64,000 bases of DNA from a virus, in the IMG/VR virus record IMGVR_UViG_3300028596_000009, positions 1 through 64,000 of that record; one strand, 5' to 3'. Shown here piece after piece: positions 73 to 39,287 of the stretch (within the stretch, counting starts at the first letter, position 1; every line of letters starts with the position of its first letter). The notes under the pieces are model-generated. The model was given only the letters and a program-made list of their open reading frames with translations, was not told where the DNA came from and made no database searches. The translations under genes and the position numbers were made by a program.

Positions 73-262
73 TCGGCCGGTCGGCGTGGTCGTTGTTCCG
101 GGTGTGCGTGCCGGTGTGGGTGGCGCGTTATCAGGTTCGGGAGCGGGTGGCCCGGGTGTGGGTGGCGGTGTCGGTTCAGTTCCGGGCGTTCTTCGCCGTG
201 GAATTGGGTTGGGTCCGCCAGTAGTTTCAGGTCAGTTTTTCCTTCGGAAAGGGGAAAGATCG

Positions 263-523
263 ATGGGCGTTTCTCTGGCGAAAGCGTTGGAGCCGGTCCG
301 TTCGGCCCGGGTGTTCAGCGCGAATCCGCTGTATCGGTGGTTCACGGTTACGGAGTTCAGCAACACGACCGTGCGCATCACCCTGGGTCGGCGTGACGGT
401 ACGTACATCAGCCTTCCGGCGGTCCGGAACAACTGGGAGAACACGTTGTCCGACTGGACGCGTGCGGAGCACGCGGGCGGGACGTTCATCCTCTCGGAGA
501 TGCTGTACGACACCCGCGCCTGA
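263..523 (+). CDS. hypothetical protein
   Basis: RBS GAAAGGGG; ATG at 263. Confidence 0.7.
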   Translation: MGVSLAKALEPVRSARVFSANPLYRWFTVTEFSNTTVRITLGRRDGTYISLPAVRNNWENTLSDWTRAEHAGGTFILSEMLYDTRA

Positions 524-625
524 CTGAAAATCGATCCCGCCACTAAGGGGTTTGGGAGTCGGGACGATAGGTTTCTGGTCGGGCCCGGGACGTGTTTCCG
601 GGCCCGGGGATTGGAGGAAAGCGGC

Positions 626-1033
626 ATGGACGCGTTGCAGTACGCGGGGCACATGGACGGTTCGTCGCTTCACCGGGACATCTACGGGGTGTTCGGGCCG
701 CGCCGGGGTGTGGTCCGGTCGGCGGACGCCAACGGCGGCACGGAGATCTTCGGGACGTACACGCGGGTGTGGCTGCACAACGGCTACGGGATTCTTGTGC
801 TCGCTGCCGAGTACCCGGACGGCGAGCCGACGGGGTGGCTGACCCTGTTCCCGATCAAGCACGTGGGACCGGGGCGCGCGGAAGACATGTTCCGGATCAT
901 CGGTACCGACTGGGAGCCGCTGGGGTTCGGGACGCGGGCGACGGGCCGGACGGACGCGGACGTGGGCGACGGGATCGACCTGTTGGCGGCGCTGTCGGAG
1001 CTGGACGGGCACTCGATGGCGGGTGTCGTGTGA
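626..1033 (+). CDS. hypothetical protein
   Basis: RBS GGAGG. Confidence 0.75.
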   Translation: MDALQYAGHMDGSSLHRDIYGVFGPRRGVVRSADANGGTEIFGTYTRVWLHNGYGILVLAAEYPDGEPTGWLTLFPIKHVGPGRAEDMFRIIGTDWEPLGFGTRATGRTDADVGDGIDLLAALSELDGHSMAGVV

Positions 1034-1377
1034 AGCCGGTGGAGGTGGCGCGGCAGGCGGCGGGGATCCTCTCCAGTCTGGGCGTGGCCGTGACCGTGGA
1101 ACGTGTGCCGGGCATGCCGAATTACCAGACTCTGGCGTGGCTGGGCAACGGGTTCGGGGTGTCGCTGGTCGTGTGGCCGGTGGACCCGTTCCCGGAGCTG
1201 CGGATCACACGGCGGGGTGTGGGGTGCGACTGGGCACCGCCGCGACCGGTGCGGGTCGGCATGCGCGGCATGGGCAAGGGGTCGGACGGTCACGGGATCA
1301 TCCGGGACGTGACGCCTGCCGAGGTTGCGGCGGTACTGGCCACGCTGAACGAGTGGCGGGCGGACGGCGGCGCGTGA
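1030..1377 (+). CDS. hypothetical protein
   Basis: GTGA overlap with upstream stop. Confidence 0.7.
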   Translation: MKPVEVARQAAGILSSLGVAVTVERVPGMPNYQTLAWLGNGFGVSLVVWPVDPFPELRITRRGVGCDWAPPRPVRVGMRGMGKGSDGHGIIRDVTPAEVAAVLATLNEWRADGGA

Positions 1378-1409
1378 GCGTCACTTATCGATTCTGGGAG
1401 GGATGGGCA

Positions 1410-1592
1410 ATGGAGCACATCACGCACGACGTGACGTCGGTGTGGCACGTGTTCGCGGGCGGTGAGTGGCTGGCCACGGAGTACGGCGGCTACGCCCCGG
1501 TGAATGTGTGGGTCGGTGAGCGGCTGGTTCCGGTGGAACGGCGGCACATGGCCTCGTCGGTATCGGCGGCCTGCGGCGTCTGCAACAAGTGA
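1410..1592 (+). CDS. hypothetical protein (C-terminal CxxC)
   Basis: RBS GGAGG after TTATC element. Confidence 0.65.
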   Translation: MEHITHDVTSVWHVFAGGEWLATEYGGYAPVNVWVGERLVPVERRHMASSVSAACGVCNK

Positions 1593-1689
1593 ATCCCGGT
1601 GGGGTTTCCGGCATGCGCGGATCACGGGGGTGCCGTGCGTGTCGGAAGTCCTATCGGATCCGGTGGGACCAGGAAAAGGGAGAAAGACA

Positions 1690-2052
1690 ATGCGGAAGAT
1701 CATGATGGCGCTCGGGCTGGTCGTCGCGGTGCTCATGGGCATGGGGACGGCGTCGGCGGCGGTGCGGCCGGGACCGGTCGCGAAGATCACCAAGCCGGTG
1801 ATGCGTCCGGTGGTGGTGCGGGTGTTCCACCCGTGCGACTTCAACCACAACACGGTCATCGGCGACGCGACGGAGCGTCTGTGCATGCGGGTCTGGGCCC
1901 ACGACGCGTACAGCGTGGACGGCTCGGAGACGCCCGCCGGTCCGGTGGTCGTGGTCGGGCTGATCGATGAGGCGCGGGTGGAGGGTGCCGGGGTCGCGTA
2001 CGTCCGTGAGGGGCTGCGCAACGAGGAGGCGAACTACAAGCTGCGTGACTGA
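1690..2052 (+). CDS. putative secreted protein
   Basis: Sec-type signal MRKIMMALGLVVAVLMGMGTASA-A; RBS. Confidence 0.7.
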   Translation: MRKIMMALGLVVAVLMGMGTASAAVRPGPVAKITKPVMRPVVVRVFHPCDFNHNTVIGDATERLCMRVWAHDAYSVDGSETPAGPVVVVGLIDEARVEGAGVAYVREGLRNEEANYKLRD

Positions 2053-2158
2053 TCGCGGCGTGGTCGTGTGACCACTCGGAGCGGCCGGGAATTGCGCGCC
2101 CGGCCGTTGCGACGGCATCACACGGTGACTTATCGAGTGCGGGACGAAAGGGAGAGGC

Positions 2159-2389: not shown

Positions 2390-2432
2390 ACCTGCGGCAC
2401 GTACGTCAGTCATTTCGGAAAGGGGAGAGTTC

Positions 2433-2927
2433 ATGAGGGTTCTGGCAGTGGAGAGCGTGTCCGGTGTGCCGATCAATGCGGTACTGAACCGGGACAGCGG
2501 GCGGGTCATGTTCTACGACGCCCGCCACACGGGGGACGCGCCGTCCGGGTCGCGGCGGCAGGATCTGCGGACGCCGGAGGGGCACTTCATCGCGGAGTAC
2601 TCGACCGGCGACTACCTGATCGCCCCGACGACCGTGCTCTACGGGAACGACTACGACCGCAAGCTGACATCGGAATCCATGGACGCCGTGGTCAAGTGGC
2701 TCCGGTGTGCCCGTACCGGGAAGTACTCCACGGCCCGGGAGAACGGTATGGCGTTCATCGCGAACCGGTGGACGTACGCGGGTGACCAGGGGTACCGGGT
2801 GGTGCCGGACGGGACGCTGTGGCGGGTGGACTCGTACGCGCACACGGACTTGCGTCCGACGTCGATCGGCAGGCTGACGGAGGACGACGCGCACGACGCG
2901 GCATGGCGTCTCGCGTACGGGAAGTGA
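2433..2927 (+). CDS. hypothetical protein
   Basis: RBS GAAAGGGGAG. Confidence 0.75.
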   Translation: MRVLAVESVSGVPINAVLNRDSGRVMFYDARHTGDAPSGSRRQDLRTPEGHFIAEYSTGDYLIAPTTVLYGNDYDRKLTSESMDAVVKWLRCARTGKYSTARENGMAFIANRWTYAGDQGYRVVPDGTLWRVDSYAHTDLRPTSIGRLTEDDAHDAAWRLAYGK

Positions 2928-3015
2928 ATCGGTCGGCACATCGGGCGGGCAGGGGCGTGATCGTCCCTGCCGGTCCGTGTCCTTATCGATTCTGGGAAAG
3001 GGGAGAGGCAGAGAG

Positions 3016-3525
3016 ATGAACAAGATCAAGTTTGTGTCCGCGTACGACGCCGGGCATGTGCAGATGGGCGGTCACTGGCTGCGGGAGGGTGCCGCGCCGG
3101 TGATGAACAACACGCTGGACGCGTTGATGTCCCATGACCACGTGATCCTGGTCAACGCCGACGGGACCGTGACGGACAACCCGGACGGGGTGTGGGCGCC
3201 GGAGCTGAACGTCTGCGTGAACTGGGAGGGTCAGGAGGACCCGGGGACGGACGCCGACCTGATCGCGACAGCCAAGAGCGCGGGGTGGGACATCGCCTCG
3301 GGCTGGACGGGTCAGTACGGCTACTCCGGGATCGCCATGCACACGGACGAGCGGGTGGGCGGCGGTCTCGCGGAGCACGTGATCGAGACGCCCGGTTACT
3401 GGGTGGTGACGTCCCCCTCCGTGTTGCCGGGGCACTGCGTGGGGGCGGACGACGACTGCGACGAGTGCCGGATCCTGATGGAGCGCGGCGCGGACTACTG
3501 GCTGATCATGCACAAGGAGGCGTGA
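3016..3525 (+). CDS. hypothetical protein (acidic)
   Basis: RBS after TTATC element. Confidence 0.8.
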   Translation: MNKIKFVSAYDAGHVQMGGHWLREGAAPVMNNTLDALMSHDHVILVNADGTVTDNPDGVWAPELNVCVNWEGQEDPGTDADLIATAKSAGWDIASGWTGQYGYSGIAMHTDERVGGGLAEHVIETPGYWVVTSPSVLPGHCVGADDDCDECRILMERGADYWLIMHKEA

Positions 3526-3528
3526 GGG

Positions 3529-3882
3529 ATGAGCAACAACTACGCGATCACGGACGCGATGCTGGCCCGCCCGGTGGTGGACGCGGACGACGTGGACCGC
3601 TTCCCGGAGATCCTGGGGAAGTACGAGGAGGGGGACCGGGTCCCGGATCACTTCGGTTCGGTGGGCGCGTTCGTCGCGTTCATGTGGTCCATGGACTCCG
3701 CCCAGGACGAGGACTGCGGGGCGGCGACGGACGCCGGGGCGAGCTGGTACGGCGTGTTCTGGTCGGATCACGTGATCCTGCGGTGCGAGGGGACGGGGCC
3801 CATCTCCGCGTGGCGGGTCGGCCCGGACTACATCGAAGCGGCGTGGGCGAAGATCCAGGACGGTGCGGTCCACCTGGTGTGA
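3529..3882 (+). CDS. hypothetical acidic protein
   Basis: RBS AAGGAGG; D/E-rich. Confidence 0.8.
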   Translation: MSNNYAITDAMLARPVVDADDVDRFPEILGKYEEGDRVPDHFGSVGAFVAFMWSMDSAQDEDCGAATDAGASWYGVFWSDHVILRCEGTGPISAWRVGPDYIEAAWAKIQDGAVHLV

Positions 3883-3966
3883 CCTGGTGGGGGTTCGGTG
3901 GCGTGCGTTGGGGGGACGTGCGCTCGCCGTGGCCTTATCGAGTCCGGGAAATGGGAGGAAGACGGA

Positions 3967-4365
3967 ATGACGGAACTGGCGAGCAACGGGACGCCCATGG
4001 ACGTGCTGACGGAAGAGGACTGGGAGACGCCCTACGGGCTGGGCAAGTTCGACAGCATCGCGCAGGAAAAGCTGTACGTGTGGTCCCTGGACGGTGGCCA
4101 CAAGGACGAGACGGGCGGCGGGGAGTTCCCGTGGTCGTGCCTGTTCGTGCAGCCGGAGCGGGAGGCGGACCGGGTTCCGGCGCTGCGGGCCGGGGTGATC
4201 CTCACGGTGTCGACGGGTGGGGGCGTGTCCTCGGCGCGGTACGACACGGCGGAGGAACTGGCCGTCGCGTGGAAGGACCACGAGGACACCTACGCGCAGT
4301 GGTTGCACTCCGAGTGCGAGGACGGCGTCGAGTGCGACGGCTGTAACGCGTGTGAGAACGCCTGA
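3967..4365 (+). CDS. hypothetical acidic protein, C-terminal Cys cluster
   Basis: RBS GGAGG. Confidence 0.8.
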   Translation: MTELASNGTPMDVLTEEDWETPYGLGKFDSIAQEKLYVWSLDGGHKDETGGGEFPWSCLFVQPEREADRVPALRAGVILTVSTGGGVSSARYDTAEELAVAWKDHEDTYAQWLHSECEDGVECDGCNACENA

Positions 4366-4446
4366 TTCGGTCGGGTTGACGGCGGCGCATGTCGTGAGGC
4401 GTGCGCGCGCCGTGTCCTTATCGAGTCTGGGAAAGGGGACAGGGAC

Positions 4447-4905
4447 ATGCATGTCGAATACATCGGGGTCAACGATCGTCAGGTCGGGACGGGGACGCTG
4501 CACAAGGTGCACGCGCACTGGGAGTCGACAAAGACGGAGAAGGGGGAGGTCAAGCGGGCCGCGTCGGCGGCGGTGCGCAAGGTGGTCGGCAAGGGCGGGA
4601 GCGTCACGTTCTCGTCGTGGACGGTCGGTAACTACAACGCTCCGCGCATGGACGCGGCGATCCTGGTCCGTGTGCTGACGGACGCGCAGGTGGCGGCGCG
4701 CAAGGAACTCAAGTCGCTTCGGTTCACGGAGTGCGAGGGGCCGGGGGCCGACGGCAAGGGGTGCGGGAAGTTCCCCGGGCAGGTGGTCCGGATGACCGAC
4801 GGCACGGAGCAGCCGCTGTGTTTCGACTGCTGGAACCCGATGCGGGGGACCGGGGTCAAGGTCATGCACTACATCCAGCGTGACGGCCGGGTGCAGATCA
4901 ACTGA
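4447..4905 (+). CDS. hypothetical Zn-finger protein
   Basis: C-terminal Cys motifs; RBS. Confidence 0.75.
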   Translation: MHVEYIGVNDRQVGTGTLHKVHAHWESTKTEKGEVKRAASAAVRKVVGKGGSVTFSSWTVGNYNAPRMDAAILVRVLTDAQVAARKELKSLRFTECEGPGADGKGCGKFPGQVVRMTDGTEQPLCFDCWNPMRGTGVKVMHYIQRDGRVQIN

Positions 4906-4995
4906 GCGGGTCGGGTTCGTGGCGGCACGCATCGCACGGTGTGTGCGCGCCATGTCCTTATCGGCTGTGGAACCAACAAGGAAAGAGGTACGGAC

Positions 4996-5202
4996 ATGAA
5001 CGCGCGCGAAGAGCTGGTGGCGGCGGAGATCGCTTTCGACGAACTGACGGAGGGTGGCCGGAGCCTGGTGACGGCGGCGAGCGACCCGCAGGTGGCCTTC
5101 TGCGACGGGACGGTCACCAGGACGTGGGCGGAGGCGGCGGCGCACGCGAACCACCTGGTGGAGGTAACCCGGGAGCAGATCGCCAAGAACGAGTCCCGCT
5201 GA
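4996..5202 (+). CDS. hypothetical protein
   Basis: RBS AAGGAAAGAGG. Confidence 0.7.
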   Translation: MNAREELVAAEIAFDELTEGGRSLVTAASDPQVAFCDGTVTRTWAEAAAHANHLVEVTREQIAKNESR

Positions 5203-5238
5203 ACCTGATCTATCGGCAACGGAACCAAGGAGAGAGAC

Positions 5239-5610: not shown

Positions 5611-5939
5611 GCGACTTCGGGACCCTGGAGCACAGCATTCGGGCGTGGCTGGAAAACGACTACCCGCTCTATCGCGAGGTGCAGCGGATCGCGGCCCGGG
5701 ACAACCGGCATCACGTGCGGACGCGGGATGTCCAGCGGCTGGTGACGAGCATCCTGTACGGGCTCAACGGGATGTCGGACCTTCGGCACCTGTACCGCAA
5801 GGCGGCGGAGGAGAAGAACCGGGAGCCCCGTTCTCCGGACTGGGCGGCGCTGGGCAAGTTCCGTGACAGCTTCACGCGTACGGAATTCGACCACATCGAC
5901 TGGGCGCCGCTGACGTACGACCTGATGGAAGGGATGTAG
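5607..5939 (+). CDS. hypothetical protein (paralog of previous gene)
   Basis: GTGA overlap; C-terminal FTRTEFDHIDWA. Confidence 0.8.
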   Translation: MSDFGTLEHSIRAWLENDYPLYREVQRIAARDNRHHVRTRDVQRLVTSILYGLNGMSDLRHLYRKAAEEKNREPRSPDWAALGKFRDSFTRTEFDHIDWAPLTYDLMEGM

Positions 5940-6020
5940 CGGGCCCGACCGGGTTTCGGGAGGCCCCGGGTGACCGGGGTTTCCAGTGGCCTTATCGGTT
6001 CTGGAACAGGGAGAAAGATC

Positions 6021-6533
6021 ATGGGAAAGACGATGAACATCAACGGGCACACGGTGACGGCGACGGGCACGACCGCCAAGGGACTGCCGGGTAACCCGGC
6101 CCTGTACCGGTGCGAGGGGTGCGGGGAGACGGTGGCCGCGCCGTCGTTCGAGAACGGCCCGTACGGGTGCCCGGGTGACCCGGCGTCCACCGTCCTCCAG
6201 GTGTGCCCGGGCGGGGAGCGGTGCGAGGGACACAGGGACACGGACTCGGCGGAGTACCGGGCGTGGAAGGAGATCGCTTCGGTGTCGGAGGACACCATTC
6301 CGACCTACCGGCACGGGGACCCGGCGGACCGTAAAACGGGGCTGGCGTACCGGGCGGCGTCGGCGTACATCGCGTGGGCGGACGGCGTGGGCATGCGGTT
6401 CTCCGTGTGGGCGCAGGAGGGGTTCAAGGTCGGCCCGGACGGCGGGAAGGTCGCGGAGATGACGTTCCGGGGCGAGTCGTGGGCGGTGTGGGTGGACCAC
6501 TTCGGGCACATCACCGCGCGGCGGGACAACTGA
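6021..6533 (+). CDS. hypothetical protein
   Basis: RBS AGGGAG. Confidence 0.75.
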   Translation: MGKTMNINGHTVTATGTTAKGLPGNPALYRCEGCGETVAAPSFENGPYGCPGDPASTVLQVCPGGERCEGHRDTDSAEYRAWKEIASVSEDTIPTYRHGDPADRKTGLAYRAASAYIAWADGVGMRFSVWAQEGFKVGPDGGKVAEMTFRGESWAVWVDHFGHITARRDN

Positions 6534-6617
6534 CACCGGTAGGGGTCGGGGAGGGTGCGGGGCCATGTGCTCCGTAGCTTCCTCTGTCCTTATCAGTCTC
6601 GGGAAGGAGATGGACGA

Positions 6618-7016: not shown

Positions 7017-7060
7017 GGGCTCGTCGAGCCTTATCGATTTCGGGAAAAGGAGAAGGACGA

Positions 7061-7335: not shown

Positions 7336-7722
7336 ATGGCGGATCGAGCGGTGTTCGTGGAACACGACGGGTACACGGTGGACGCTCACCGGACCTGCGG
7401 GGCGGAGACCTGCGTCAAGGAGGTGATGATCAAGCTGGGTGTGCCGGTTCTCGCGGCGGTGGAGCTGGAGGCCGGGAACCGGAAGTCGTACACGTTCAAG
7501 GACGGCGGCGACCTCGGGAACGTGGTCATCACGACCGGGGACCCCGGGGAGCCCAGCGGCGACGCGTACTGCGTGTGGTGCGGTGACTTCCTGGAGCACG
7601 GCACGGACTGCAAGCACACGGACAAGGGGACAGAGCTGGCGCCGCTGGCGTCCGGCGTCCTGAACCCGTACCCGGGGCGCATGAACCACAGCGACTATCC
7701 GGGCCGGTACAGCAAGCCGTGA
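7336..7722 (+). CDS. hypothetical protein (CxxC...H..C)
   Basis: RBS GGAGG. Confidence 0.75.
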   Translation: MADRAVFVEHDGYTVDAHRTCGAETCVKEVMIKLGVPVLAAVELEAGNRKSYTFKDGGDLGNVVITTGDPGEPSGDAYCVWCGDFLEHGTDCKHTDKGTELAPLASGVLNPYPGRMNHSDYPGRYSKP

Positions 7723-7808
7723 CGGCGTCGGTCGGTGTGCGGGCGGGTTCCGGGAGTCCTCGGAGCCCGTCCGGATCCTTATCGACACTGGGAAATGGAG
7801 GAAGACGC

Positions 7809-8281: not shown

Positions 8282-8372
8282 CGGTTTCCGTCGCGGGTCG
8301 GGGTGCAGTCGGGTTCCGGTGTCTGCCGGAATCCGGCCGGATCCTTATCGGTTTCGGGAAAGGTGAAACGAA

Positions 8373-9295: not shown

Positions 9296-9327
9296 TCTAT
9301 CCGTTCTGGAACAAGGAGAAAGACACC

Positions 9328-9681: not shown

Positions 9682-9778
9682 CGGGCCGGTCTTCGCGGCT
9701 TATCCGGTCTGGGTGCCGGGTCGGATGAGCCGAGTGGACTTACCCGCTGGGTGAGTACTGGAAAGGGAGGAAGGCGTC

Positions 9779-11228: not shown

Positions 11229-11317
11229 TCGGTTGCGGCCGGGGGATGCATGAGGCGCCTTATCGGGTCTGGTGCTTCCTCCAGTCGTCATCTCGGCGAC
11301 GGGAAGGAGAGCTGAAC

Positions 11318-12071: not shown

Positions 12072-12148
12072 ACCTGTGCGCCTTGGTGGGGCACCCGGCT
12101 TATCGATTCCGGGTGCCCTCGCCATTCCGTCCAGGGAGGGAGAGAAGG

Positions 12149-13089: not shown

Positions 13090-13114
13090 CGGGTTATCAG
13101 GAAAGGGAAAGACC

Positions 13115-13624
13115 ATGACCGAAAGCACCATCTGCCCGCTGTGCAAGATCAACGAGCGCGAGTACGACAGCGAGCCGTCCGGCCGGGGGAGCTACTTCTC
13201 CCACTGCACCCGGTGTTCGTCGCTGATCACGCAGTCGGAGCACAACCACACGGTCTACCCGTCCCCGGCGCAGGTGGCGGCCGGTTCGTACCGCGCAGGT
13301 CACTCCTGGCGGACGGCACAGACCACCATCCCGATCATGGAGTCGGGTGTGCACGTCGGCTACCGCTGCACCCGGTTCGAACAGTGCGGCTGGGAACGCC
13401 GCTTCACGCCGGAGGAGCTGGAGCCGTGCACCGAGCACACGGACCGCTTCGGGTTCCCGATCGAAATGATCAAGGGCCGGTGTGCCCGCCTGCACGTGGA
13501 CCGGCTGGCCCTCGGTGAGATCGACGGGCGGGGTTACATCACGGAGCACGGGCGTGGTGTGGAGGTGGCCCGCGAGATCGCCACCACGTGGGACCCCGGC
13601 CGGTACGTCGAGCCGGTCCGGTAG
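13115..13624 (+). CDS. Zn-finger hypothetical protein
   Basis: CPLC, CTRC; RBS. Confidence 0.75.
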   Translation: MTESTICPLCKINEREYDSEPSGRGSYFSHCTRCSSLITQSEHNHTVYPSPAQVAAGSYRAGHSWRTAQTTIPIMESGVHVGYRCTRFEQCGWERRFTPEELEPCTEHTDRFGFPIEMIKGRCARLHVDRLALGEIDGRGYITEHGRGVEVAREIATTWDPGRYVEPVR

Positions 13625-13724
13625 AGAGTCTGGTCGGGCTTCGGGAGGGCGCGGCTTGCCGCGCTTTCCAGTGGCCTTATCGGCTGTGGGCCGCCGGACG
13701 GCGGCTTGGCGGGAAGGGGAAGCG

Positions 13725-14539: not shown

Positions 14540-14684
14540 CGATCACCAACTGAAAAGCTGGCCTGATTTCGACCGCATCAAGGGCGCGCACGATGGATCT
14601 CTAGTAGGTTCTCGTGTGCGTCCTTGTCGTTATCGTGAGATGGCGGCTTATCGCTTTCGGAACTGAACACGAGGAGAAAACGAC

Positions 14685-15727: not shown

Positions 15728-15767
15728 TCCACCGCCCGCCGCAGGCTTATCAGGAAAGGAAGAGGAC

Positions 15768-16061
15768 GTGGGACGGAACAGTCTGGATCTGGAGATCGGT
15801 GACGATTTCCAGGGTGGCAGCGTGATCGCAATCCACCAGCAGGAGAACCACGGCAGCGCTGGTGTGGTGCTGACGTTCAGCCACGAGGACCGGTACGTGG
15901 TGTGGACGGTGGACCCGCACCTGAAGGTCATCGACCAGGATCAGTACCCGGTCGGCACGTACGCCTACAGCCGGTACGTGGAGCTGGTGGCACATCAGCT
16001 CTTCACGCACTTCAACCAGGCGGCGCCGGGTGTGACGTTCATGGTCAAGAACAGCGGCTGA
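15768..16061 (+). CDS. hypothetical protein
   Basis: RBS. Confidence 0.7.
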   Translation: MGRNSLDLEIGDDFQGGSVIAIHQQENHGSAGVVLTFSHEDRYVVWTVDPHLKVIDQDQYPVGTYAYSRYVELVAHQLFTHFNQAAPGVTFMVKNSG

Positions 16062-16140
16062 CTCGGCTGGGGTTCGGGGGTACGCGGCCCGTTCCGTGTG
16101 CCCCAGTGCCCTTATCGGGTCAAGGAAAGAGGAGAAGGCG

Positions 16141-16434: not shown

Positions 16435-16643
16435 CTCCGGCGGAGAAGAAGCGACTGGTGGCCAAGGCTCTGATCTACCAGGCAGGGAGTCTGGTCGAGT
16501 TCTGGTCCGACATGACAAGCAACCTCCTCGAACCGGAGGAGGCGGAGGAGATCTCGCCCGAGTTCGCACGGGAGTGCCTGAACACTTGGCTCAAGAACCT
16601 TCCCGGGGACTCCTGGGACACTCGGCTCGGGCCCGTCGACTGA
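16431..16643 (+). CDS. hypothetical protein
   Basis: GTGA overlap. Confidence 0.7.
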   Translation: MTPAEKKRLVAKALIYQAGSLVEFWSDMTSNLLEPEEAEEISPEFARECLNTWLKNLPGDSWDTRLGPVD

Positions 16644-16684
16644 CGGGGCCTGCGGCTTATCAGATCAAGGAAGAGGAGAAAGAG

Positions 16685-19121: not shown

Positions 19122-19571
19122 ATGGCGCGCAGCAGGATCACTCTGGAGACGGTGATCGAGGTCATGGACAAGGTCATCGCGGGCACACCGGCGGGCGCGG
19201 ATTCCCGGGTCGGCCGGAAGCTCGGTGGCCGGTACGCGGAGCACGGTAAGCCGTGCTGCCTGGTCGGCGTGATGCTTATCGAGTTCGGGGCGTCGGTCGC
19301 CACGCTCAAGGAGCTGGACCGCGAGGCGAAGTGGATCGAGGAATCGGTTCACCCGTACTGGCGCCGGTTCGAACCGCTCGCTCTGAGCTTGCTCGCCTTC
19401 CTCCAGCGCCAGAACGACAGCGGCGATTCGTGGGAGGAGGCAGCCCTCGCCGCCTTCACCGGCTCCTCGTACTGGAGGGACCTTCTGACCGGCGGAGAGG
19501 CGTACTACCTGGACCGGGTTTTCCGGGGACGCCCCTGGCTCACGGCCGACAAGGTGAGGAAGTGGAGCTGA
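19122..19571 (+). CDS. actinophage-type hypothetical protein (CLVG...Q..D.G..W)
   Basis: Motif and ORF context. Confidence 0.7.
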   Translation: MARSRITLETVIEVMDKVIAGTPAGADSRVGRKLGGRYAEHGKPCCLVGVMLIEFGASVATLKELDREAKWIEESVHPYWRRFEPLALSLLAFLQRQNDSGDSWEEAALAAFTGSSYWRDLLTGGEAYYLDRVFRGRPWLTADKVRKWS

Positions 19572-20680: not shown

Positions 20681-21207
20681 AGCAGGAGCTGATCACGTTC
20701 CCGAGCGGGGGCGAGTGGGAGGACAGTGGCGAGGGCGGCATGTACGCGCTGCTGGTGGTGAAGGAGCCGCTGGAGTGGCGCACCAACTGCAACGTGGATG
20801 TGCACACGCTGATCCAGCGCAACCGGCCGGACGCGAAGCGCTCGACGACGGTCCGGATGACCCCGCACGACGTGTGCGTATCGAGTCAGGAAGCGAAGCT
20901 TCTGTGGGCTCCGTACAACTACCAGTCGTCCGGGTATCAGCACGATGCGGCGAAGGTGCTGCGGTCCAAGGGGATGGCTGTCGAAGCCCAGTGGGTGGAG
21001 CGCGCCGACGACCCGGATGACTACAGCACGTCGATGCTGGCCACGGCGTTTCTCGGGTCCACTTCGCAGTCGCTGTTCAGCGAGGAGCGGGGTGCGTACT
21101 TCGAGGCGACGATCGAGGATCTGACAGAGCAAGGTCGTGCTCTGCACCGGCTCTACAAGTCGGCGTACGGGATCAAGCCGGTGATCCTGACGTTCCTTGA
21201 CACCTGA
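20677..21207 (+). CDS. hypothetical protein
   Basis: GTGA overlap. Confidence 0.75.
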   Translation: MKQELITFPSGGEWEDSGEGGMYALLVVKEPLEWRTNCNVDVHTLIQRNRPDAKRSTTVRMTPHDVCVSSQEAKLLWAPYNYQSSGYQHDAAKVLRSKGMAVEAQWVERADDPDDYSTSMLATAFLGSTSQSLFSEERGAYFEATIEDLTEQGRALHRLYKSAYGIKPVILTFLDT

Positions 21208-21301
21208 CCTGACCCACGGGCGCGCACTCTGGTGGGTGCGCGCCTTCCTCATGCCCCGCGTTTCGGTGCGGCGGCTTATCAGGAAATGAAGGAGAAAGAT
21301 C

Positions 21302-23676: not shown

Positions 23677-23704
23677 GCGCGGTTATCAGAAAGGGGAAGA
23701 CACC

Positions 23705-25892: not shown

Positions 25893-25929
25893 GCGCGTCC
25901 GCTTATCAGCAACGGAAAGGGGAGGGAAC

Positions 25930-26912: not shown

Positions 26913-27112
26913 TCGAGCGAGGTATGGAACAGGGTGAGGCGCGGCGCCGCGCCAAGGAGCTGGGCGGGATCGCCGTCGAGGCGCGCTGGTCGGAGAAGGC
27001 TGGTACGTGGCTGACCGGTGGGTGGGCCAGCGCACGAGGCAAGGCGTGGATCGTCGTGTCACTCGACCACATGGTGGTCCTGGCCGATGAGCCGGAGGTC
27101 AAGCAGGTCTGA
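26909..27112 (+). CDS. hypothetical protein
   Basis: GTGA overlap. Confidence 0.6.
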   Translation: MIERGMEQGEARRRAKELGGIAVEARWSEKAGTWLTGGWASARGKAWIVVSLDHMVVLADEPEVKQV

Positions 27113-27198
27113 CGGACTCGGTTCGGCCGCGCACAGGGACCCCTCTGTGCGTGTGCCGTGTCGCCTTCGTCGGAGGCTTATCAGGGAGGGGAAGGGCA

Positions 27199-27785: not shown

Positions 27786-27816
27786 CGGCCGCCGGTTATC
27801 AGAAAGGGGAAAGAGG

Positions 27817-30139: not shown

Positions 30140-30210
30140 CGCACCCTCACTGACCTGCGGGTTATCAAGAACGGGATCCTTCGGGGTCCCGTTCTTCCAT
30201 CAACACCACC

Positions 30211-31861: not shown

Positions 31862-31966
31862 GAGGCACAAGGTCTTCATATCGAACCTCACCGCCTGATG
31901 CGGTGAACAGTGGCGGCGCCGGGCGGTTCTTCCGTCCGGCGCCGTCTTATCAGGAAGGGGAAAGAC

Positions 31967-32653: not shown

Positions 32654-32661
32654 CGGTGGTG

Positions 32662-32711: not shown

Positions 32712-32728
32712 CGGAAAGGAGACGTCTC

Positions 32729-34163: not shown

Positions 34164-34175
34164 AGGAGAAGGATC

Positions 34176-34340
34176 ATGGGCGTCTTCAAGCGTGGCGGCG
34201 GTTCCAGCGGCTCCGGCAACAGCGGAACCTCGACGAACCGCGACCCGTACATCAGCGGCAACCGGGACGACTGGAACAACCGGCCGAAGTCCGACGGCGA
34301 GAACTTCAAGACGGACAAGAAGGACAAGGACAAAAAGTGA
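34176..34340 (+). CDS. small disordered basic protein
   Basis: RBS AAGGAG; MGVFKRGGGSS...KKDKDKK. Confidence 0.6.
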   Translation: MGVFKRGGGSSGSGNSGTSTNRDPYISGNRDDWNNRPKSDGENFKTDKKDKDKK

Positions 34341-35188
34341 CGCAGCGTCGGATCCTCTTCGCCGGAGACACCCACGGGAACTTCGGCCACATGCAGTTCC
34401 TGTTGAACGTCGCGGCGAAGGAGGATGCCGACGCGGTATTCGTCCTCGGTGACTTCGGCATCTGGGACCACGACGACCAGGGCTCCTTCACCGACGCGGT
34501 CAGCAAGTACAGCGTTCGAGCGGGCAAGCCGGTGTACTTCCTGCCGGGCAACCACGAGAACTACGACCTGCTGGAGCAGTGGGAGAAGGAGAACGACCGG
34601 GACGAGGACGGCTTCGTCATCGTCAAGCCGAACGTCCTGTACTCGCCTCGCGGCCACCGCTGGTCGTGGGGCGGGGTCCGGTTCATGTCGCTGGGCGGCG
34701 CGTACAGCGTCGATCTGGACGCACGGAAGAAGGAGGACGCGGCAACTCTGGAGGGCGCTCGGCGCAAGGTCGGCGTCGGGCACAGGGTAAATGCCAGGCA
34801 GCGCTACCTGCTGAAGTTCGGTCACTACCTGTGGTGGCCGCAGGAGGAGATCACCGAGGACGATCTGGTGCACGCACTGCGTCCGGGCGCGGTGGATGTG
34901 CTGCTGACGCACGACAAGCCGCGCGACTCCGACCCGGGCTGGAACAGGAAGGACTTGTTCCGGTGCCACCCGAACCAGGACAAGATCCAGAAGGTGGTCC
35001 ACGCCAAGCGGCCTCAGGTTCTGCTGCACGGTCACCTGCATCATCCGTACGAGCAGATGGTCGGTCAGACCTGGGTGCGTTCCCTGAACTGCGATCCCGA
35101 GGCTTCGCTGAAGTCGGGTGGTTCGGGTGACCGGCACAGCTCGTACACGGTGATGTCGTTCGAGAACGGCTCGGCCGACTTCGCGTGA
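34337..35188 (+). CDS. calcineurin-like metallophosphoesterase
   Basis: GDTHGN, LGDFG, GNHE, THD and HGHLH motifs. Confidence 0.9.
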   Translation: MTQRRILFAGDTHGNFGHMQFLLNVAAKEDADAVFVLGDFGIWDHDDQGSFTDAVSKYSVRAGKPVYFLPGNHENYDLLEQWEKENDRDEDGFVIVKPNVLYSPRGHRWSWGGVRFMSLGGAYSVDLDARKKEDAATLEGARRKVGVGHRVNARQRYLLKFGHYLWWPQEEITEDDLVHALRPGAVDVLLTHDKPRDSDPGWNRKDLFRCHPNQDKIQKVVHAKRPQVLLHGHLHHPYEQMVGQTWVRSLNCDPEASLKSGGSGDRHSSYTVMSFENGSADFA

Positions 35189-35288
35189 TCCGTACATGGG
35201 GCCGCCTGCCTTCGGGTGGGCGGCCCTCGGCTTATCAGAAACGGTGCACACGTTCTCCACCGCTCAGCACCCGGACAGAAGAGGAGAG

Positions 35289-35594: not shown

Positions 35595-35626
35595 CCGGTT
35601 ATCAGAAACGGAAAAAGGAGAAGGAC

Positions 35627-36187: not shown

Positions 36188-36189
36188 CG

Positions 36190-36931: not shown

Positions 36932-36953
36932 GATTCATGACGAGAGGAGAGCT

Positions 36954-37232
36954 GTGAACAAGGTGACGATCCCCGAGGGGGTCGAGGGGTTCTCCCTGGC
37001 GCAGGAGGAGGGCCAGCATTTCGTGTTCCTGGCCTCTGCGGAGGACGGAAACTACGTCATCGTCTGTGCCGATTCTGACGGATTCGTCCTGATGCGGTAC
37101 GCGGTAAGGCGCAGCGGTTCGGTGTGCGTCACCCAGTCCCTGGAACTCAGCTCGGACGACTTCTCCGAGGTGTTCGGCCGGATGCTGGACCTGGACGCGA
37201 AGGTTTCGGAGAGGGGAAGCAAGCATGCGTAA
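36954..37232 (+). CDS. hypothetical protein (possible paralog of next gene)
   Basis: KVTIPEG. Confidence 0.65.
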   Translation: MNKVTIPEGVEGFSLAQEEGQHFVFLASAEDGNYVIVCADSDGFVLMRYAVRRSGSVCVTQSLELSSDDFSEVFGRMLDLDAKVSERGSKHA

Positions 37233-37458
37233 GGTGGCAATCCCGAAGGGCGCCGAGTGGATCGGCCTGGAGGGTATGGCGGGCCGGTTCTACCCGATCG
37301 CCCTGGCGGGCTCGGTGGTTCTGGTGGACGACTTCGGCTCGGTGTGGGCAGAGCTGTTCCACACGGATCGAACGAACCTGCTGTTCCGCACGTTCCAGCC
37401 CATGAGTGACGCGAACGTGAAGTCGGCGTTCTCGTACCTGATGGAGGACGCCAGGTAG
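37225..37458 (+). CDS. hypothetical protein (possible paralog of previous gene)
   Basis: KVAIPKG. Confidence 0.65.
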   Translation: MRKVAIPKGAEWIGLEGMAGRFYPIALAGSVVLVDDFGSVWAELFHTDRTNLLFRTFQPMSDANVKSAFSYLMEDAR

Positions 37459-37708
37459 GGGCCCCTTCCCGGGTCCTCCGGCCCTGCTGTACAGTCCAGC
37501 TCACAAGACCCGTCCGGCCTCTGCGTGCATGCTGCCGGGTTATGGATGACCGAAGGTCCACTGGTGCTCAGGCCGGTGGGCCTTCGTCATTTCCTGGTTC
37601 AGAGTACCCGCCAGCGGGTATTGAGTTTCCTTTCGACCGTCCCTGCTGTGACATTTTTACGCTTTAGAAAAGAGGCAGAAACTAGGCCCCGAATCAGTCA
37701 GGAGAATC

Positions 37709-37921
37709 TTGGTGCGTTTCATTCACTTAGCCCAGTGTGCGGCCTTCTCACTGTTTGCTCTGGTCACCACCTTCGCCCTCGGGTATGCCCTCAGCAGGGA
37801 TCTTGTCCCATCGGTGATCGTTGCAGTTGCATGCTCGGCCATCACCCTCCTCTACACGGGCACGGTGTACTGTTGGCTTTACCGCCGCACGCGTGCTGGA
37901 ATCCACCGGAAGTCACGGTAA
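37709..37921 (+). CDS. small two-TM membrane protein (TTA codon)
   Basis: Two hydrophobic segments; RBS AGGAG. Confidence 0.5.
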   Translation: MVRFIHLAQCAAFSLFALVTTFALGYALSRDLVPSVIVAVACSAITLLYTGTVYCWLYRRTRAGIHRKSR

Positions 37922-37980
37922 GATCTTTGCGTTAACGTGGTGGGAAACACCATTGATGATGCAGAGAAAGGGGACACACT

Positions 37981-38433
37981 GTGGCCCGAGTACGTGATGT
38001 TGTTGTGCGTGACGCCCCCGATGGTCCCCCCGGACAGGGTGTGTACACGACCAAGCTCCAGGCGCTGGCCGTGGATCCGACCAAGACGGTGGTCGACGCA
38101 CGGTTCGACACCCTCAAGGCCGTCGAGGACGCCGCATTCCGCGTGAACAGCGGACAGCGGAAGGACTGGCCGAACGACAAGTACTACGCCGCGTTCGACT
38201 ACGACATCGCCGACGAGTCGATCGAGGGCAGCAGCGCCGGGAAGTGGCTGCTTCTGATCGGTCTGAGGGAGCACGCCCCGGTCGGCTGGCAGCCGGTGAT
38301 CAATGCCCCCGGCAGCCGCAAGCGGCGGAAGTCGGCCAAGGCGGAGACAGAGATCGAGCAGAGCGTCGAGCAGGACGCCGACGAGCAGTCCGAGGCGGAG
38401 AACGCCGCCTTTTTCCAGGAGCCGACGGAGTAG
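37981..38433 (+). CDS. hypothetical protein
   Basis: RBS GAAAGGGG. Confidence 0.7.
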   Translation: MARVRDVVVRDAPDGPPGQGVYTTKLQALAVDPTKTVVDARFDTLKAVEDAAFRVNSGQRKDWPNDKYYAAFDYDIADESIEGSSAGKWLLLIGLREHAPVGWQPVINAPGSRKRRKSAKAETEIEQSVEQDADEQSEAENAAFFQEPTE

Positions 38434-38790
38434 AACCTCTGGTTCACCTTGCGGTAGCCGCAGAGCCCATCCTCACGGAAAATGAGGGTGGGCTTTGTCG
38501 TTGCCATCGTCTAGTTGACGGAGATCGAATCGTTCTGACGTGCGTGTTCGCCCTGTCACGCTACGTGAAGTCACCTTGCGGACCTGCGAGTTGACCAAGG
38601 AAAGACTCAACTTCCCTACCGGTTTCCGAGTTCTACTCCCAAGGTGATTCGATGGAACCTGGCACACGAGGGACGTACCCGTGGCACATGCGGTACCTTC
38701 GGCTTGCCGACACAAAAACGATCCTCCCGGTCGGGGGGTTTCCGGTCACACGGGGAATGAGTCTCACCGGGTCAGCGCAGGGGAGTGGGG

Positions 38791-39183
38791 ATGGCAAGAC
38801 CTTCGGGGCCGCTGAGGAGATACAGCGTCTACTGTGTGTGGCCGGTGCATCCCGGCCAGTGGAGGCTGACGGTCGACATGATCGACGGACCTACGGCAAG
38901 AGAGAGTGCGGCGGCACTGCGGAGGATGAACTACCCGGTACGGGTTGTCACGATTCTGCTCCGCCCCACCACTGCCCGGACTCTCGAAGCACGTTTCCTG
39001 GCCGCCGAATGGGACAGATACGGCAGGGTGGTCTACCGCTACGACGGCGAATACGCCAAGTACGTGGCACCGTGGGCTCTGGGGGAAGAGCCCCTGGAAA
39101 AGGAGAAGGCCGGTGGAGCAGCAGGAAGGATCGTTCGACGACCTCGTGAGCCTGGTGGAATCGCTGCCCGACAGAAGCGATGA
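38791..39183 (+). CDS. hypothetical protein
   Basis: ORF with RBS GGGAG. Confidence 0.5.
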   Translation: MARPSGPLRRYSVYCVWPVHPGQWRLTVDMIDGPTARESAAALRRMNYPVRVVTILLRPTTARTLEARFLAAEWDRYGRVVYRYDGEYAKYVAPWALGEEPLEKEKAGGAAGRIVRRPREPGGIAARQKR

Positions 39184-39287
39184 CGTGATGTGGCCGGTGC
39201 TCGACGACTACGACTACGAAGAGCGCGACTGAACATCAGGGACCGGTCCTTCGGGGCCGGTTCCGCTTTATCGTGAGGGAACAGACG

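Follow-up and report, generated by a model that had tools for sequence, protein, structure and literature searches.

In the uncultured, giant, Streptomyces-type phage analysed here and in its metagenomic relatives, a strand-specific sequence box, often situated at the base of a covarying RNA hairpin, marks about 40 of the gaps that separate small early genes. The window, a 64,000-nucleotide stretch of the 166.8-kb phage genome, contains 37 matches to STTATCR, 33 of them on the + strand, compared with 7.3 ± 2.5 expected. Nearly all are confined to positions 1–36 kb, which agrees with the enrichment reported in the initial annotation. Across the whole genome, TTATC occurs 46 times on the + strand and 14 times on the − strand, and 36 of the + copies lie within the first 40 kb. 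The extended motif TATC-N6-GG is present in 40 + and no − copies in the first 40 kb of the window; the corresponding +/− counts in the relatives L175, L176, L178, and L179 are 5/0, 7/0, 29/2, and 24/0. The arm at 54–64 kb lacks the element, as described initially, save for a single copy, at 60199, which overlaps called ORFs and lacks the context of Shine-Dalgarno sequence and start codon.

The conserved unit is a rigid box of two parts, C-(T/C)TATC-R and a GG exactly 6 nt further, and its halves start 11 bp, or one helical turn, apart. The syntenic relatives L175–L180 share the box in 91 TTATC copies, 81 of which have the GG at +11/+12. W occupies position +8 in 87%, a pyrimidine position +10 in 68%, and G positions +11 and +12 in 91% and 97%, respectively. 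Variant cores are CTATC, ATATC, and GTATC; these and the fixed GG were overlooked by the initial annotation. The GG forms the opening of a purine tract complementary to the 3′ end of 16S rRNA, also in orphan copies, which read GGGTG or GGTG. The box was correctly placed ahead of the Shine-Dalgarno sequence and start codon, 20–38 nt before the latter in most copies. The distances are bimodal (20–22 and 28–30 nt); about 75% of the copies lie 13–40 nt ahead of a start codon, and about 20% lie 46–147 nt from any start.

Ten copies in the window form a structured repeat family of ~75 nt on the + strand. Cassettes of type A precede the genes 3016–3525 (2918..2995; covariance model (CM) R1 46.5 bits, fold), 3967–4365 (3873..3947; CM R1 23.1 bits, fold), and 4447–4905 (4356..4430; CM seed 84.6 bits, fold). 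Another follows the last of these genes (4896..4970), and its hairpin is orthologous to that after the same gene in L175. Additional type A copies are positioned at 6525..6602 (TTATCA; CM 23.4 bits, fold), 7717..7791, and 8283..8357 (both CM and fold). The cassette at 2918..2995 is composed of an outer helix from the upstream stop, a GC-rich apical stem, CC-TT-ATCG, and N6-GGG. A hairpin with TTATC occupies the matching position before the orthologous gene in L175, where the hairpin instead matches that after window gene G. The cassette between genes J and K (5934..6004; CM) is of a TTCGGGAGG..TTTCCAGTGG subtype and is missing in L175, in which the two genes overlap. The hairpin and TTATC after gene 13115–13624 (13620..13689; CM) have orthologs with compensatory changes in L177, L178, L179, and L180. 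In the cassette at 16052..16124 (CM, fold) the GG is moved to +12/+13. The examples quoted in the initial annotation, at 2983, 4418, 7779, and 16112, are present as described, as are the minimal CTGA..TTATCAG copies and the loop copy at 12100.

Further hairpins accompany boxes on the + strand, with the variant CTATCG-N5-GG at 1593..1668 and with TTATC at 2130 in 2067..2147 (fold at the 6th percentile). The hairpin at 12076..12131 (RNAalifold) holds CTTATCGNNN in a 10-nt apical loop and the GG of the box in its 3′ stem. It is conserved in L178 and L179, with 20 pairs in RNAalifold, 4 of them altered on both sides. TTATCAG boxes are combined with a hairpin without similarity to type A (16595..16671; 2nd percentile), with two unrelated hairpins (21207..21290; fold), and with one unrelated hairpin (27112..27192; 1st percentile). 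At 31885..31961 (fold) TTATCAG-GAAGGGG directly follows a strong unrelated hairpin, and at 35190..35246 (fold) the TTATCAG box is 4 nt from a UUCG-loop hairpin, with the next start 57 nt away. The last copy of the arm (39239..39282), with the GG at +9, is a terminator-like UUCG hairpin followed by GCTTTATCG.

The other boxes on the + strand include the first of the arm, positioned 128 nt from the contig end (127..141). Start codons are at +25 from the box at 1384..1398 and at +30 from that at 7030..7044, neither of which has a strong hairpin. The boxes at 5209..5223 (CTGA..CTATCG-N5-GG) and 9296..9310 (CTGAT-CTATCC-N5-GG) are minimal variants. An orphan box at 9699..9713, with a similar copy in L179, is 79 nt from the next start, and the 58-nt leader behind the box at 11259..11273 is conserved in L178 and L179. 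At the site orthologous to the minimal box CTGA-CGGG-TTATCAG-GAAAGGG (13093..13107), L178 has ATATC, L179 has CTATC, and L177 lacks the box. Twin TTATC boxes stand behind a conserved TAGTAGGT block (14629..14661). Minimal boxes were also found at 15746..15760 (hairpin-less, 99th percentile; start at +21), at 23682..23696, 25902..25916, and 27795..27809 (all CTGA..TTATCAG; starts at +22, +27, and +21), and at 35598..35612 (CTGA-CCGG-TTATCAG; start at +28). The box at 30161..30175 has a UUCG hairpin on its 3′ and not its 5′ side, and its next start is 147 nt off. The copy at 19275..19289 is located within a conserved gene as codons L-I-E-F-G, also in L178 and L179, and is possibly kept by the protein alone.

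The initial annotation stated that each box closes an inverted repeat, which proved too general. An upstream hairpin counted as strong when its fold fell under the 5th percentile of the background; such hairpins accompany 14 of 30 window copies and, with the relatives added, 34 of 81 (~42%), leaving 58% without. The box is displayed in an internal loop, in an apical loop, or unstructured. Together with the hairpin-less majority, this varied display indicates that structure is not the recognition element. The proposed covariation of the outer arms holds for the structured subfamily, and not for the remaining boxes. It is weak within the ten window copies (p ~0.02–0.03 in register; 84% paired, compared with 75% when shuffled) and clear in the 33 structured + strand copies found by the CM search in 6 contigs, in which 87.6% of the cells are paired, compared with 66.9% in shuffled controls (0/500). 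The pairing drops to 37–49% when the partners are slid. In the outer helix of the 33 copies, to which ATC(G) of the box and the N6 belong, pairing reaches 82%, and 7 of 10 pairs are altered on both sides. Because this covarying helix spans the box, the transcript must extend from the upstream stop across the box. Folding that depends on G.U pairs and is restricted to the + strand, as claimed initially, is strongly borne out: the sense strand folds better in all 33 copies (−40.1 compared with −26.3 kcal/mol), and the difference of −13.7 kcal/mol contrasts with −3.5 in random windows. The active form of the hairpin is therefore RNA or + strand single-stranded DNA. UUCG, GNRA, and CUUG loops are seen in the hairpins. 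The suggested pairing of a CTGA stop with TCAG fits the window, where CTGA is present in 11 of 13 copies (8 from the table, 3 by eye) against a background of 45%. It is not a general rule, since in the larger set CTGA lies within 22 nt of merely 8 of 38 TATCAG copies, and of 11 of 75 TATCGR copies. A canonical U-tract is absent, as noted initially, but T is enriched in type A copies, where the 11 nt past the inner hairpin are ~47% T (hand count).

The gene order varies among five relatives, and the rearrangement junctions fall inside the cassettes, in line with the shuffling anticipated by the initial annotation. The crossover points vary within the cassette, and the shuffling resembles ordinary recombination among cassette repeats, as in the PeSLs of T4-type phages. 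In L176, an overlapping gene upstream contains one box within its 3′ end. The box is absent in the cultured relative Satis and in five Satis-like IMG/VR genomes. Satis nevertheless retains related hairpins, which argues for a phage reader that co-evolves with the box.

Neither sigma-70 consensus nor sigma-A-type promoters were found in the arm, no conserved −35 element is present upstream of the box, and TANNNT occurs in just 8 of 39 gaps, which fits long transcripts. No gene for sigma-70 region 2 or 4 or for a T7-type polymerase was found in the phage. Searches of 88% of the genome identified no tyrosine recombinase or integrase and, among the few families searched, no nuclease or RNA-binding gene, RNase III included.

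The box and hairpin form a real, previously undescribed regulatory cassette, which has no match in Rfam and is not described in the literature searched. The position of the box in an apical loop conserved with compensatory changes in three phages, and the covarying sense-only fold, make an RNA-level signal plausible. The mRNA-processing or translation signal proposed initially is strengthened by the same two features and weakened by the absence of the stem from 58% of the boxes. We tentatively favour the box as an RNA-level tag on early messages, a reading to which we give somewhat less than an even chance. The cassettes would act on the transcript; they separate the cistrons in a long array of small early genes that all point the same way. 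Each would combine a sense-strand RNA hairpin at or adjoining the upstream stop codon (in ~40% of cassettes), the rigid box C-(U/C)UAUC-R with five further bases and GG, and an extended Shine-Dalgarno sequence and start codon 20–22 or 28–30 nt from the box. The arm would be transcribed as a long polycistronic RNA, and the box may be bound as a class tag by a sequence-specific reader; the clade specificity of the box makes a phage-encoded reader most likely. Within this reading an endonucleolytic cut in or just past the box is preferred, although taken by itself it is rather doubtful. After the cut, a protective hairpin would close the upstream cistron, and the downstream cistron would begin near its ribosome-binding site. 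The tag may alternatively allow early messages to be switched off in the manner of RegA or RegB. Repetition of the cassettes would, as a by-product, supply crossover points at which ORFan genes are reshuffled. A model based on RNase III only cannot account for copies that have no hairpin. With host RNase E as the sole enzyme, so exact a 5-nt core would not be maintained, and the absence of the box from the Satis-like relatives would stay unexplained, although the hosts may differ. Cutting also does not explain why TATC, W at +8, Y at +10, and the fixed GG are arranged like a −10 element and start site, and a cut at the intragenic box of L176 would truncate the upstream message.

RNA polymerase prefers Y(−1)R(+1) and G(+2) at start sites. 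The preferences at +8, +10, +11, and +12 match such a start, and the 3′ C of the box stands a rigid 6 nt before the GG. It is possible, though on balance unlikely, that the cassette is an attenuator and promoter, with TATC as a −10-like element (~−10 to −7), the N6 as discriminator, and the GG as the start of transcription. An unrecognised phage sigma-like factor or appropriator would redirect host RNA polymerase, which would be the reader, and the hairpin would be an I-shaped terminator or attenuator of upstream transcription that overlaps the promoter. This reading was not considered in the initial annotation. It accommodates boxes without hairpins, at variable distances from the start, and even inside an upstream gene, as well as the lack of sigma-A-type promoters in the arm. 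The 127 nt ahead of the first box contain no TA dinucleotide, so that no −10 element could precede the box there. PeSLs likewise carry a stem-loop overlapping a −10 box (PMC2839356, PMC4122927), terminator-like hairpins of Satis hold a −35 hexamer in the loop, and actinophages can encode sigma-displacing proteins missed by sigma profiles (bioRxiv 10.64898/2026.10.05.756390). However, no register of the core fits TANNNT, the −35 element is missing, phage sigma and polymerase genes were not found, and transcription of genes that seem early would be expected to rely on host polymerase in unmodified form. A type B message would open with its own Shine-Dalgarno sequence in a 9–11-nt leader, and the covarying outer helix and the conserved apical-loop box require the extra assumption that terminator and promoter overlap.

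A translational operator or enhancer, in which a protein or the 30S subunit binds UAUC-N6-GG beside the ribosome-binding site and raises or shuts off early translation without a cut, is improbable; it is the same as the translational share of the RNA-level tag and is counted once. The proximity of most copies to start codons, the complementarity to 16S rRNA, the restriction to one strand and one gene class, and the close formal parallel with the SAS/ESAS elements (PMC3203893) agree with it. The bimodal distances, the distant fifth of the copies, the GG at +11 of type A, which is not a working Shine-Dalgarno sequence, and the dispensability of the box at orthologous sites do not. Plain intrinsic terminators, composed of a GC-rich hairpin and a weak U-rich tail (UUAUCGAUUCU) with the outer helix as A-tract/U-tract pairing, are very unlikely. 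TTATC is directly 3′ of the hairpin in structured copies, the tail is enriched in T (by hand count), and the sole canonical terminator call of the arm ends in GCTTTATCG, but most boxes are hairpin-less, several others are 3–24 nt from their hairpin, the fixed GG is unexplained, and use as a tail would block the outer helix, which covaries. About 40 asymmetric sites that all face the same way with respect to transcription, occupy short intergenic gaps in a single arm, and have half-boxes one helical turn apart would suit a phage repressor or silencer that blocks elongation through the early arm. This reading is equally hard to credit, since a sense-only hairpin containing the box would have no role, the box goes together with ribosome-binding sites, and no integrase was found in the searched 88% of the genome. 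The initial annotation also proposed folded single-stranded DNA recombination sites bounding mobile gene cassettes. Resemblances to such a system are the gene orders that differ at the sites and the location, between co-oriented ORFs, of imperfect inverted repeats in which the ends are conserved, the centre varies, and the TT is unpaired. It is nevertheless the least credible reading and can be nearly dismissed: the recombinase was not found in the searched 88% of the genome, RYYYAAC/GTTRRRY cores were not seen by inspection, most boxes have no repeat, the varying crossover points are as homologous recombination between repeats predicts, and the UUCG and GNRA loops point to RNA.

Integron attC sites share the imperfect inverted repeats with the cassette and differ in having core sites and a tyrosine recombinase. 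The stoperators of mycobacteriophage L5 are the analogue of the oriented repressor sites. PeSLs extend from stop codon to ATG (PMC2839356, PMC4122927), and their shuffling was described as recombination between repeated cassettes (PMC2839356). The start-associated sequences (SAS/ESAS) of Cluster K phages are asymmetric repeats in one orientation in the non-structural arm, half of them preceded by inverted repeats (PMC3203893). For the box as an RNA-level tag, T4 RegA and RegB provide the analogue of an early-message switch-off or translational target, and the RNase III sites of T7 that of the outcome of cutting, a hairpin-ended upstream cistron and a downstream cistron that begins near its ribosome-binding site.

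The record from which the window is taken has a length of 166,823 bp, is classed as linear and is estimated to be 88% complete; the window represents its first 64 kb. The G+C content is about 65% genome-wide, and the left arm (positions 1 to about 40 kb) has a strong skew of G over C. The genome encodes a portal protein, a protease/capsid fusion, a 1,782-aa tape measure protein, a terminase, a DNA polymerase, a primase and 10 tRNAs. The nearest cultured relatives are the Streptomyces siphophages Satis, JustBecause, Kradal, Kela and Frankenweenie (genomes of 185–200 kb; portal identity 65%). The left arm contains about 90 small genes, all on the + strand and very few of them assignable to a PHROG or Pfam family. 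It corresponds positionally to the right arm of Satis, which is itself read inward from the genome end; only eight left-arm proteins have Satis homologues, in roughly collinear order. Pfam matches within the window, all on the + strand, identify a calcineurin-like metallophosphoesterase (34337–35188), a group-1 glycosyltransferase (47739–48566) and a TerD-domain protein (60551–61186). Three tandem paralogues of about 130 aa are located at 57596–58948 (+), and a diverged inverted pair of genes of about 300 aa occupies 45027–45968 (−) and 49877–50776 (+). The left end of the contig (1–127, +) is G-rich, with repeated GCGGGT-like units and zero TA dinucleotides, and the syntenic metagenomic contig L178 likewise ends about 200 nt ahead of its first box. 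These ends may reflect either a physical end of the genome or a terminal repeat that breaks assembly.

The gaps between the left-arm genes contain a two-part box with the sequence C-(T/C)TATC-R, followed six nucleotides on by GG. The enrichment of TTATC-core copies described in the initial annotation is borne out, as STTATCR occurs 37 times, 33 of them on the + strand, against 7.3 ± 2.5 expected. Genome-wide, TTATC is present in 46 copies on the + strand and 14 on the − strand, and 36 of the + copies lie within the first 40 kb. TTATC is contained in the 7-mers and 9-mers that are most over-represented in the left arm, and these words do not occur on its − strand; no comparable intergenic word was found in any other block of the genome. 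When the window copies are aligned on TTATC and numbered from its first T, GG is positioned exactly at +11/+12, a feature absent from the initial annotation. The pattern TATC-N6-GG is found 40 times on the + strand and never on the − strand of positions 1–40 kb, compared with nine and 11 times in the remaining 127 kb. Three gaps that had seemed free of the element contain CTATC-N6-GG.

Boxes of type A (0–16 kb) read CC-TTATCG-(A/G)(T/G)TCT-GGGAAAGG, and those of type B (13–36 kb) read G(G/C)-TTATCAG-(G)AAAGGGGA. In most window copies the start codon follows 20–38 nt past the first T. Among 91 TTATC copies from the window and its relatives, 81 have GG at +11/+12, and the base preferences are C at −1 (79%), R at +5 (91%), W at +8 (87%), Y at +10 (68%) and G at +12 (97%). 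The distance from box to start codon is bimodal in this set, with maxima at 20–22 and 28–30 nt, and is 46–147 nt in about 20% of copies. The aligned window copies have no conserved position upstream of −3 and therefore no −35-like element, and none is conserved across the 91 copies either. The DnaA box (TTATCCACA) and the WhiG −10 element (GCCGATAA, which would fall on the strand opposite to the box) were ruled out as the identity of the box on sequence or orientation. In Rfam searches only tRNA reached the gathering score and the cassette, the box with or without its upstream hairpin, had no match; at E values up to 1, positions 1–40 kb gave a single chance-level match to PtaRNA1. No report of the box or cassette was found in the literature searched. 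The box is established as a clade-, class- and strand-specific element with rigid spacing, and the cassette as lying where one cistron gives way to the ribosome-binding site that follows.

A hairpin precedes some of the boxes. The earlier claim that each copy closes an inverted repeat stands for 14 of 30 window copies, in which the upstream 62-nt fold is below the fifth percentile for windows taken at random from this arm; several copies have no hairpin at all. With relatives included, 34 of 81 boxes follow a strong hairpin by the same threshold, and the other 58% do not. Ten window copies are diverged repeats of about 75 nt that form one family, with pairwise identities of 60–76% against a background of 56 ± 5%. 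A covariance model seeded with four equal-length copies recovers precisely these ten on the + strand and has no other match in the genome. Gene duplication does not account for the repeats, because the flanking genes are not paralogues.

RNAalifold detected no structure in a plain MAFFT alignment of 12 copies; independent minimum-energy folds of the ten structured copies agree with one another. The 5′ strand of the outer helix overlaps or abuts the upstream stop codon, and its 3′ strand is formed by the ATC(G) of the box together with N6. Further inward are a small internal loop containing the TT, a short GG/CC helix, and a GC-rich apical stem of 9–15 bp capped by a tetraloop. The apical stem co-varies strongly within the window (93% paired versus 62% when shuffled, 0/2000). 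Covariation of the outer arms, proposed from the initial reading, is modest within the window (84% paired versus 75% shuffled) and becomes clearer with relatives (82% paired). For the outer helix of the window copies, an in-register partner-swap test gave p of about 0.02–0.03, and an unconstrained duplex test of arm pairing, which is noisy, gave p = 0.01, or p = 0.06 with ATC excluded. Pairing of CTGA with TCAG as a general rule fails on the larger set that includes relatives.

The covariance model identified 33 + strand structured copies across six contigs. In the alignment of these copies, to be read with some caution because it was fitted to the model and includes one reverse-strand row, 87.6% of cells are paired, compared with 66.9 ± 1.1% after shuffling (0/500) and 37–49% with the partners slid; 19 of 23 pairs change on both sides, including seven of the ten pairs of the outer helix. 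The sense strand folds better than the antisense in 33 of 33 copies (−40.1 versus −26.3 kcal/mol), a gap four times the composition effect of random windows, which confirms that the + strand is what folds and therefore places the structure in RNA or + strand single-stranded DNA rather than in a duplex palindrome. The box at 12100 lies within the 10-nt apical loop of an 11-bp stem (hairpin 12076–12131), which is kept with compensatory changes in L178 and L179. It is established that a co-varying family of sense-strand hairpins incorporates the box in about one-third of cases, and that unrelated hairpins precede some of the others.

Relatives reached via the portal protein contained the structural region only or were Satis-like and box-free, and the protein encoded at 30309–31400 retrieved no locus from public viral contigs. 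Homologues of two left-arm proteins led to six metagenomic contigs, L175–L180, with left-arm synteny and 35–91% protein identity. In all of these except the short L177 the box is numerous and has the same strand bias, with + and − counts of TATC-N6-GG of 5 and 0 in L175, 7 and 0 in L176, 29 and 2 in L178, and 24 and 0 in L179. An exact scan for the box pattern gave no match in public viral contigs and at least 120 single matches in metagenome contigs, most of them of low GC and, among those listed, none clustered; these matches look like chance. The conserved gene at 13115 occurs in no cultured phage of the INPHARED set.

The box is absent from Satis and from five Satis-like IMG/VR genomes, and a search of the 50-kb Satis arm with the covariance model at E ≤ 0.01 detected no structured cassette. 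The Satis arm keeps related hairpins, including a TTCGGGAG..stem..TTCCAGTG subtype shared with the window copies at 5992 and 13677. It has an intergenic motif of its own, GGCCTAGGYC, in 12 copies, several of them directly after SigA-like −10 hexamers. The 12 CCTAGG sites of this arm (Satis MH576962.1, 136703–186702, − strand) take three extended forms, TGGCCTAGGTCA, GGCCTAGGCCGAT and GCGCCCTAGG. The same strand has terminator-like hairpins whose loops contain a −35 hexamer (TTGACG, TTGCGA), followed by TACGAT or TATCTT, and the extended Shine-Dalgarno sequence of Satis, cGGAAGGGAGA, is highly uniform.

Gene order differs between the relatives, and the junctions fall at cassettes. Six consecutive genes of the window phage, C (2433–2927), D (3016–3525), E (3529–3882), F (3967–4365), G (4447–4905) and H (4996–5202), are arranged as C G D E .. 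H in L175, G x D E H in L176, C G D E F H in L178 and C D G H in L179. At the junctions the hairpin stays with the upstream gene: the one after G is orthologous in the window and L175, and five phages retain the one that follows the 13115 gene. From GG onward the leader, such as that of H, stays with the downstream gene. The crossover lies within CC-TTATC-N6, at a point that differs slightly between pairs. The association of cassettes with rearrangement junctions is established; the hybrid junctions are inside cassettes, but selection by itself also leaves junctions between genes.

Individual cassettes turn over as well. A full cassette separates genes J and K in the window phage, and the same genes overlap in L175; in L176 an upstream gene overlapping the next start has one box inside its 3′ end. 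At the minimal box ahead of the 13115 gene, the sequence is TTATC in the window, ATATC in L178 and CTATC in L179, and L177 has no box there; the core is therefore TATC, and an individual copy is dispensable. A small Cys-rich ORF (..C.C.CDPD..GYGCES..C..), not present in the window, is found at differing positions in L175 (about 2880–3030) and L176 (about 2055–2160), an example of a mini-cassette moving between elements.

Two other conserved sequences accompany the boxes. The 58-nt leader after box 11260 (GGGTCTGGTGCTTCC....GTCGTCATCTCGGCGA; window 11266–11317, +; L178 about 8192–8240; L179 about 8188–8240) is near-identical in three phages whose proteins are only 40–60% identical, and is a candidate structured leader or tiny ORF. 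The block TC-TAGTAGGT-TCTCGTGTGCG precedes twin TTATC boxes in three phages (window 14590–14625, +; L178 12675–12705; L179 11528–11560), with another occurrence close to the beginning of the L178 arm (30–60); one TAGTAGGT of the window, at about 33131, is on the − strand. The block may represent a different kind of promoter or operator.

Our tentatively preferred reading, which we rate somewhat below an even chance, is that the box acts as an RNA-level tag for cleavage or translational control. The outer helix co-varies and contains the box plus N6, and the functional transcript therefore spans the region from the upstream stop through the box. An RNA-level role is also favoured by the display of the box in a conserved apical loop at one locus, by an arm without recognisable promoters, and by the gaps of the Satis arm, which are likewise mostly hairpin-only. 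Within this reading, cleavage taken by itself is rather unlikely; translational control without a cut, at once a rival to cleavage and a part of the same estimate, counted once, is less likely still. A role of the cassette as promoter plus attenuator is possible but doubtful. The last base of the box is 6 nt ahead of Y-G-G, with an almost invariant second-position G; the box depends neither on the hairpin nor on the start-codon distance, and the first copy is preceded by 127 nt without any TA. The stem-loops overlapping the −10 box in PeSLs (promoter-early stem-loops) provide a precedent (PMC2839356). However, the box does not fit TANNNT, type B copies would get very short leaders, and neither sigma-70 region 2 nor region 4 was found in the 88%-complete record. 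A search for a T7-like RNA polymerase gave no match but was uninformative, as its PF00940 control matched nowhere. A strict scan of positions 1–40 kb found no consensus sigma-70 promoter; for comparison with the Satis arm, for which that scan is too strict, a looser TTGNNN/TANNNT count gave 1 of 39 gaps in the left arm and 2 of 41 in Satis, with no clear difference.

That the cassettes are terminators only is very improbable. Terminator-like sites are no commoner than in shuffles, and only the one at 39239–39264 coincides with a box; the cassettes lack the GC-rich hairpin directly followed by a U-tract of canonical intrinsic terminators. Equally improbable are DNA sites resembling the stoperators of L5-type phages, to which the box is similar in being asymmetric, in one orientation relative to transcription and in intergenic gaps; no integrase was found in the 88%-complete record. 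The analogy to integron attC sites drawn in the initial annotation is not borne out, and such a role has a very small chance: the cores RYYYAAC and GTTRRRY are absent from the repeat ends, where the arms read CGGTCGG and CCTTATCG, and no match to the tyrosine recombinase family PF00589, which includes the IntI type, was found in the 166.8-kb, 88%-complete record, for which the controls were positive. Mycobacterial RNase E cuts 5′ of C in single-stranded intergenic RNA (PMC10641625). Simple host RNase E is disfavoured as the reader, since the core is too exact and the box is missing from Satis-like phages.

The phage encodes a tRNA-Ile(GAU) at 62039–62113 (+), nucleotides 32–39 of whose anticodon arm read CUGAUAAG. 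The box consensus C-UUAUC-A-G is the exact complement of these nucleotides, and type A boxes (UUAUCG) would pair through G.U33. Similarly to a T-box specifier, the core reads as an AUC codon between U and a purine. There is a slim chance that the box is a tRNA-binding tag through which about 40 early messages pair with, sense or sequester tRNA-Ile. The core is displayed in the apical loop at one conserved locus. With 10 phage and about 45 host tRNAs, a chance 5-nt match is not rare. If true, it would be a tRNA–mRNA contact outside the ribosome and outside T-box riboswitches.

To our knowledge, the gene regulation of actinobacteriophages is almost unmapped, especially that of 150–200 kb Streptomyces siphophages, whose early arms are, as far as we know, rows of ORFans without recognisable promoters. 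With about 100 instances and solid covariation, the cassette is a cis-element found across the clade. The fixed two-part box, a tag for one temporal gene class, must have a specific reader, such as a redirected RNA polymerase, a nuclease or an RNA-binding protein, and is a clear target for reporter and 5′-end mapping work. If the cassettes prove active, they may serve as portable insulator-plus-expression parts for Streptomyces engineering.

In the early region of T7, hairpins that are RNase III sites separate the cistrons of a polycistronic early transcript, and their upper and lower stems are split by a small internal loop with conserved bases. As in T7, the hairpin of a cut cassette would be left to stabilise the 3′ end of the upstream message. 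About two turns of interrupted double-stranded RNA with an internal loop are present in the ten structured copies (33 with relatives) and not in the 58% of boxes without a hairpin. The T7 sites number 5–10, whereas the window has about 40 boxes, some without any double-stranded RNA; a profile search of the 88%-complete record found no RNase III gene in the phage. In the RegB/RegA systems of T4, a phage protein recognises a short sequence in the ribosome-binding regions of numerous early mRNAs and inactivates that class, RegB by cutting inside GGAG. The box differs from these targets in its position upstream of the Shine-Dalgarno sequence and its fixed two-part form.

[quoted passage not shown] 2011, PMC3203893; PMC11373665; PMC12699233). 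SAS is likewise an asymmetric short actinophage repeat, present in 11–19 copies compared with about 40 in the window phage. SAS/ESAS, like the box, are restricted to the non-structural arm, have one orientation, lie just ahead of start codons, and are preceded by imperfect inverted repeats in about half of the copies. However, SAS is a 13-bp sequence, GGGATAGGAGCCC, that includes the Shine-Dalgarno and is positioned 3–9 bp from the start, whereas the box has a different sequence, lies 20–30 nt from the start and, in type A, is separate from the working Shine-Dalgarno. The ESAS repeats are conserved in sequence, whereas the stems of the window are variable in sequence and co-varying, with folding restricted to the sense strand. 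The later interpretation of ESAS is a SigA-like promoter accompanied by an operator-like inverted repeat, and SAS is still unexplained (PMC3203893, PMC11373665, PMC12699233).

PeSLs (Arbiol et al. 2010, PMC2839356; Comeau et al. 2014, PMC4122927) and the window cassettes are both repeated elements of ORFan-rich early regions that fill the space from the upstream stop to the downstream ATG. Both consist of a stem-loop, which can overlap the signal, a short conserved signal and a Shine-Dalgarno sequence, and in both the junctions of gene gain, loss and rearrangement between relatives fall in the cassettes. The two have no sequence homology. PeSLs contain a consensus sigma-70 −35/−10 promoter and an AT-rich upstream region, whereas the window cassettes have no −35 and their TATC fits no known −10; promoter and terminator activities of PeSLs have been measured. 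The cassettes would represent a second, unrelated example, after the PeSLs, of regulatory cassettes doubling as recombination modules that reshuffle ORFans. They lack the defining sequence features of both PeSLs and SAS/ESAS and lie outside any described family; the PeSLs of T4-type phages are the closest in form and evolutionary behaviour, and SAS/ESAS of Cluster K the closest within actinophages.
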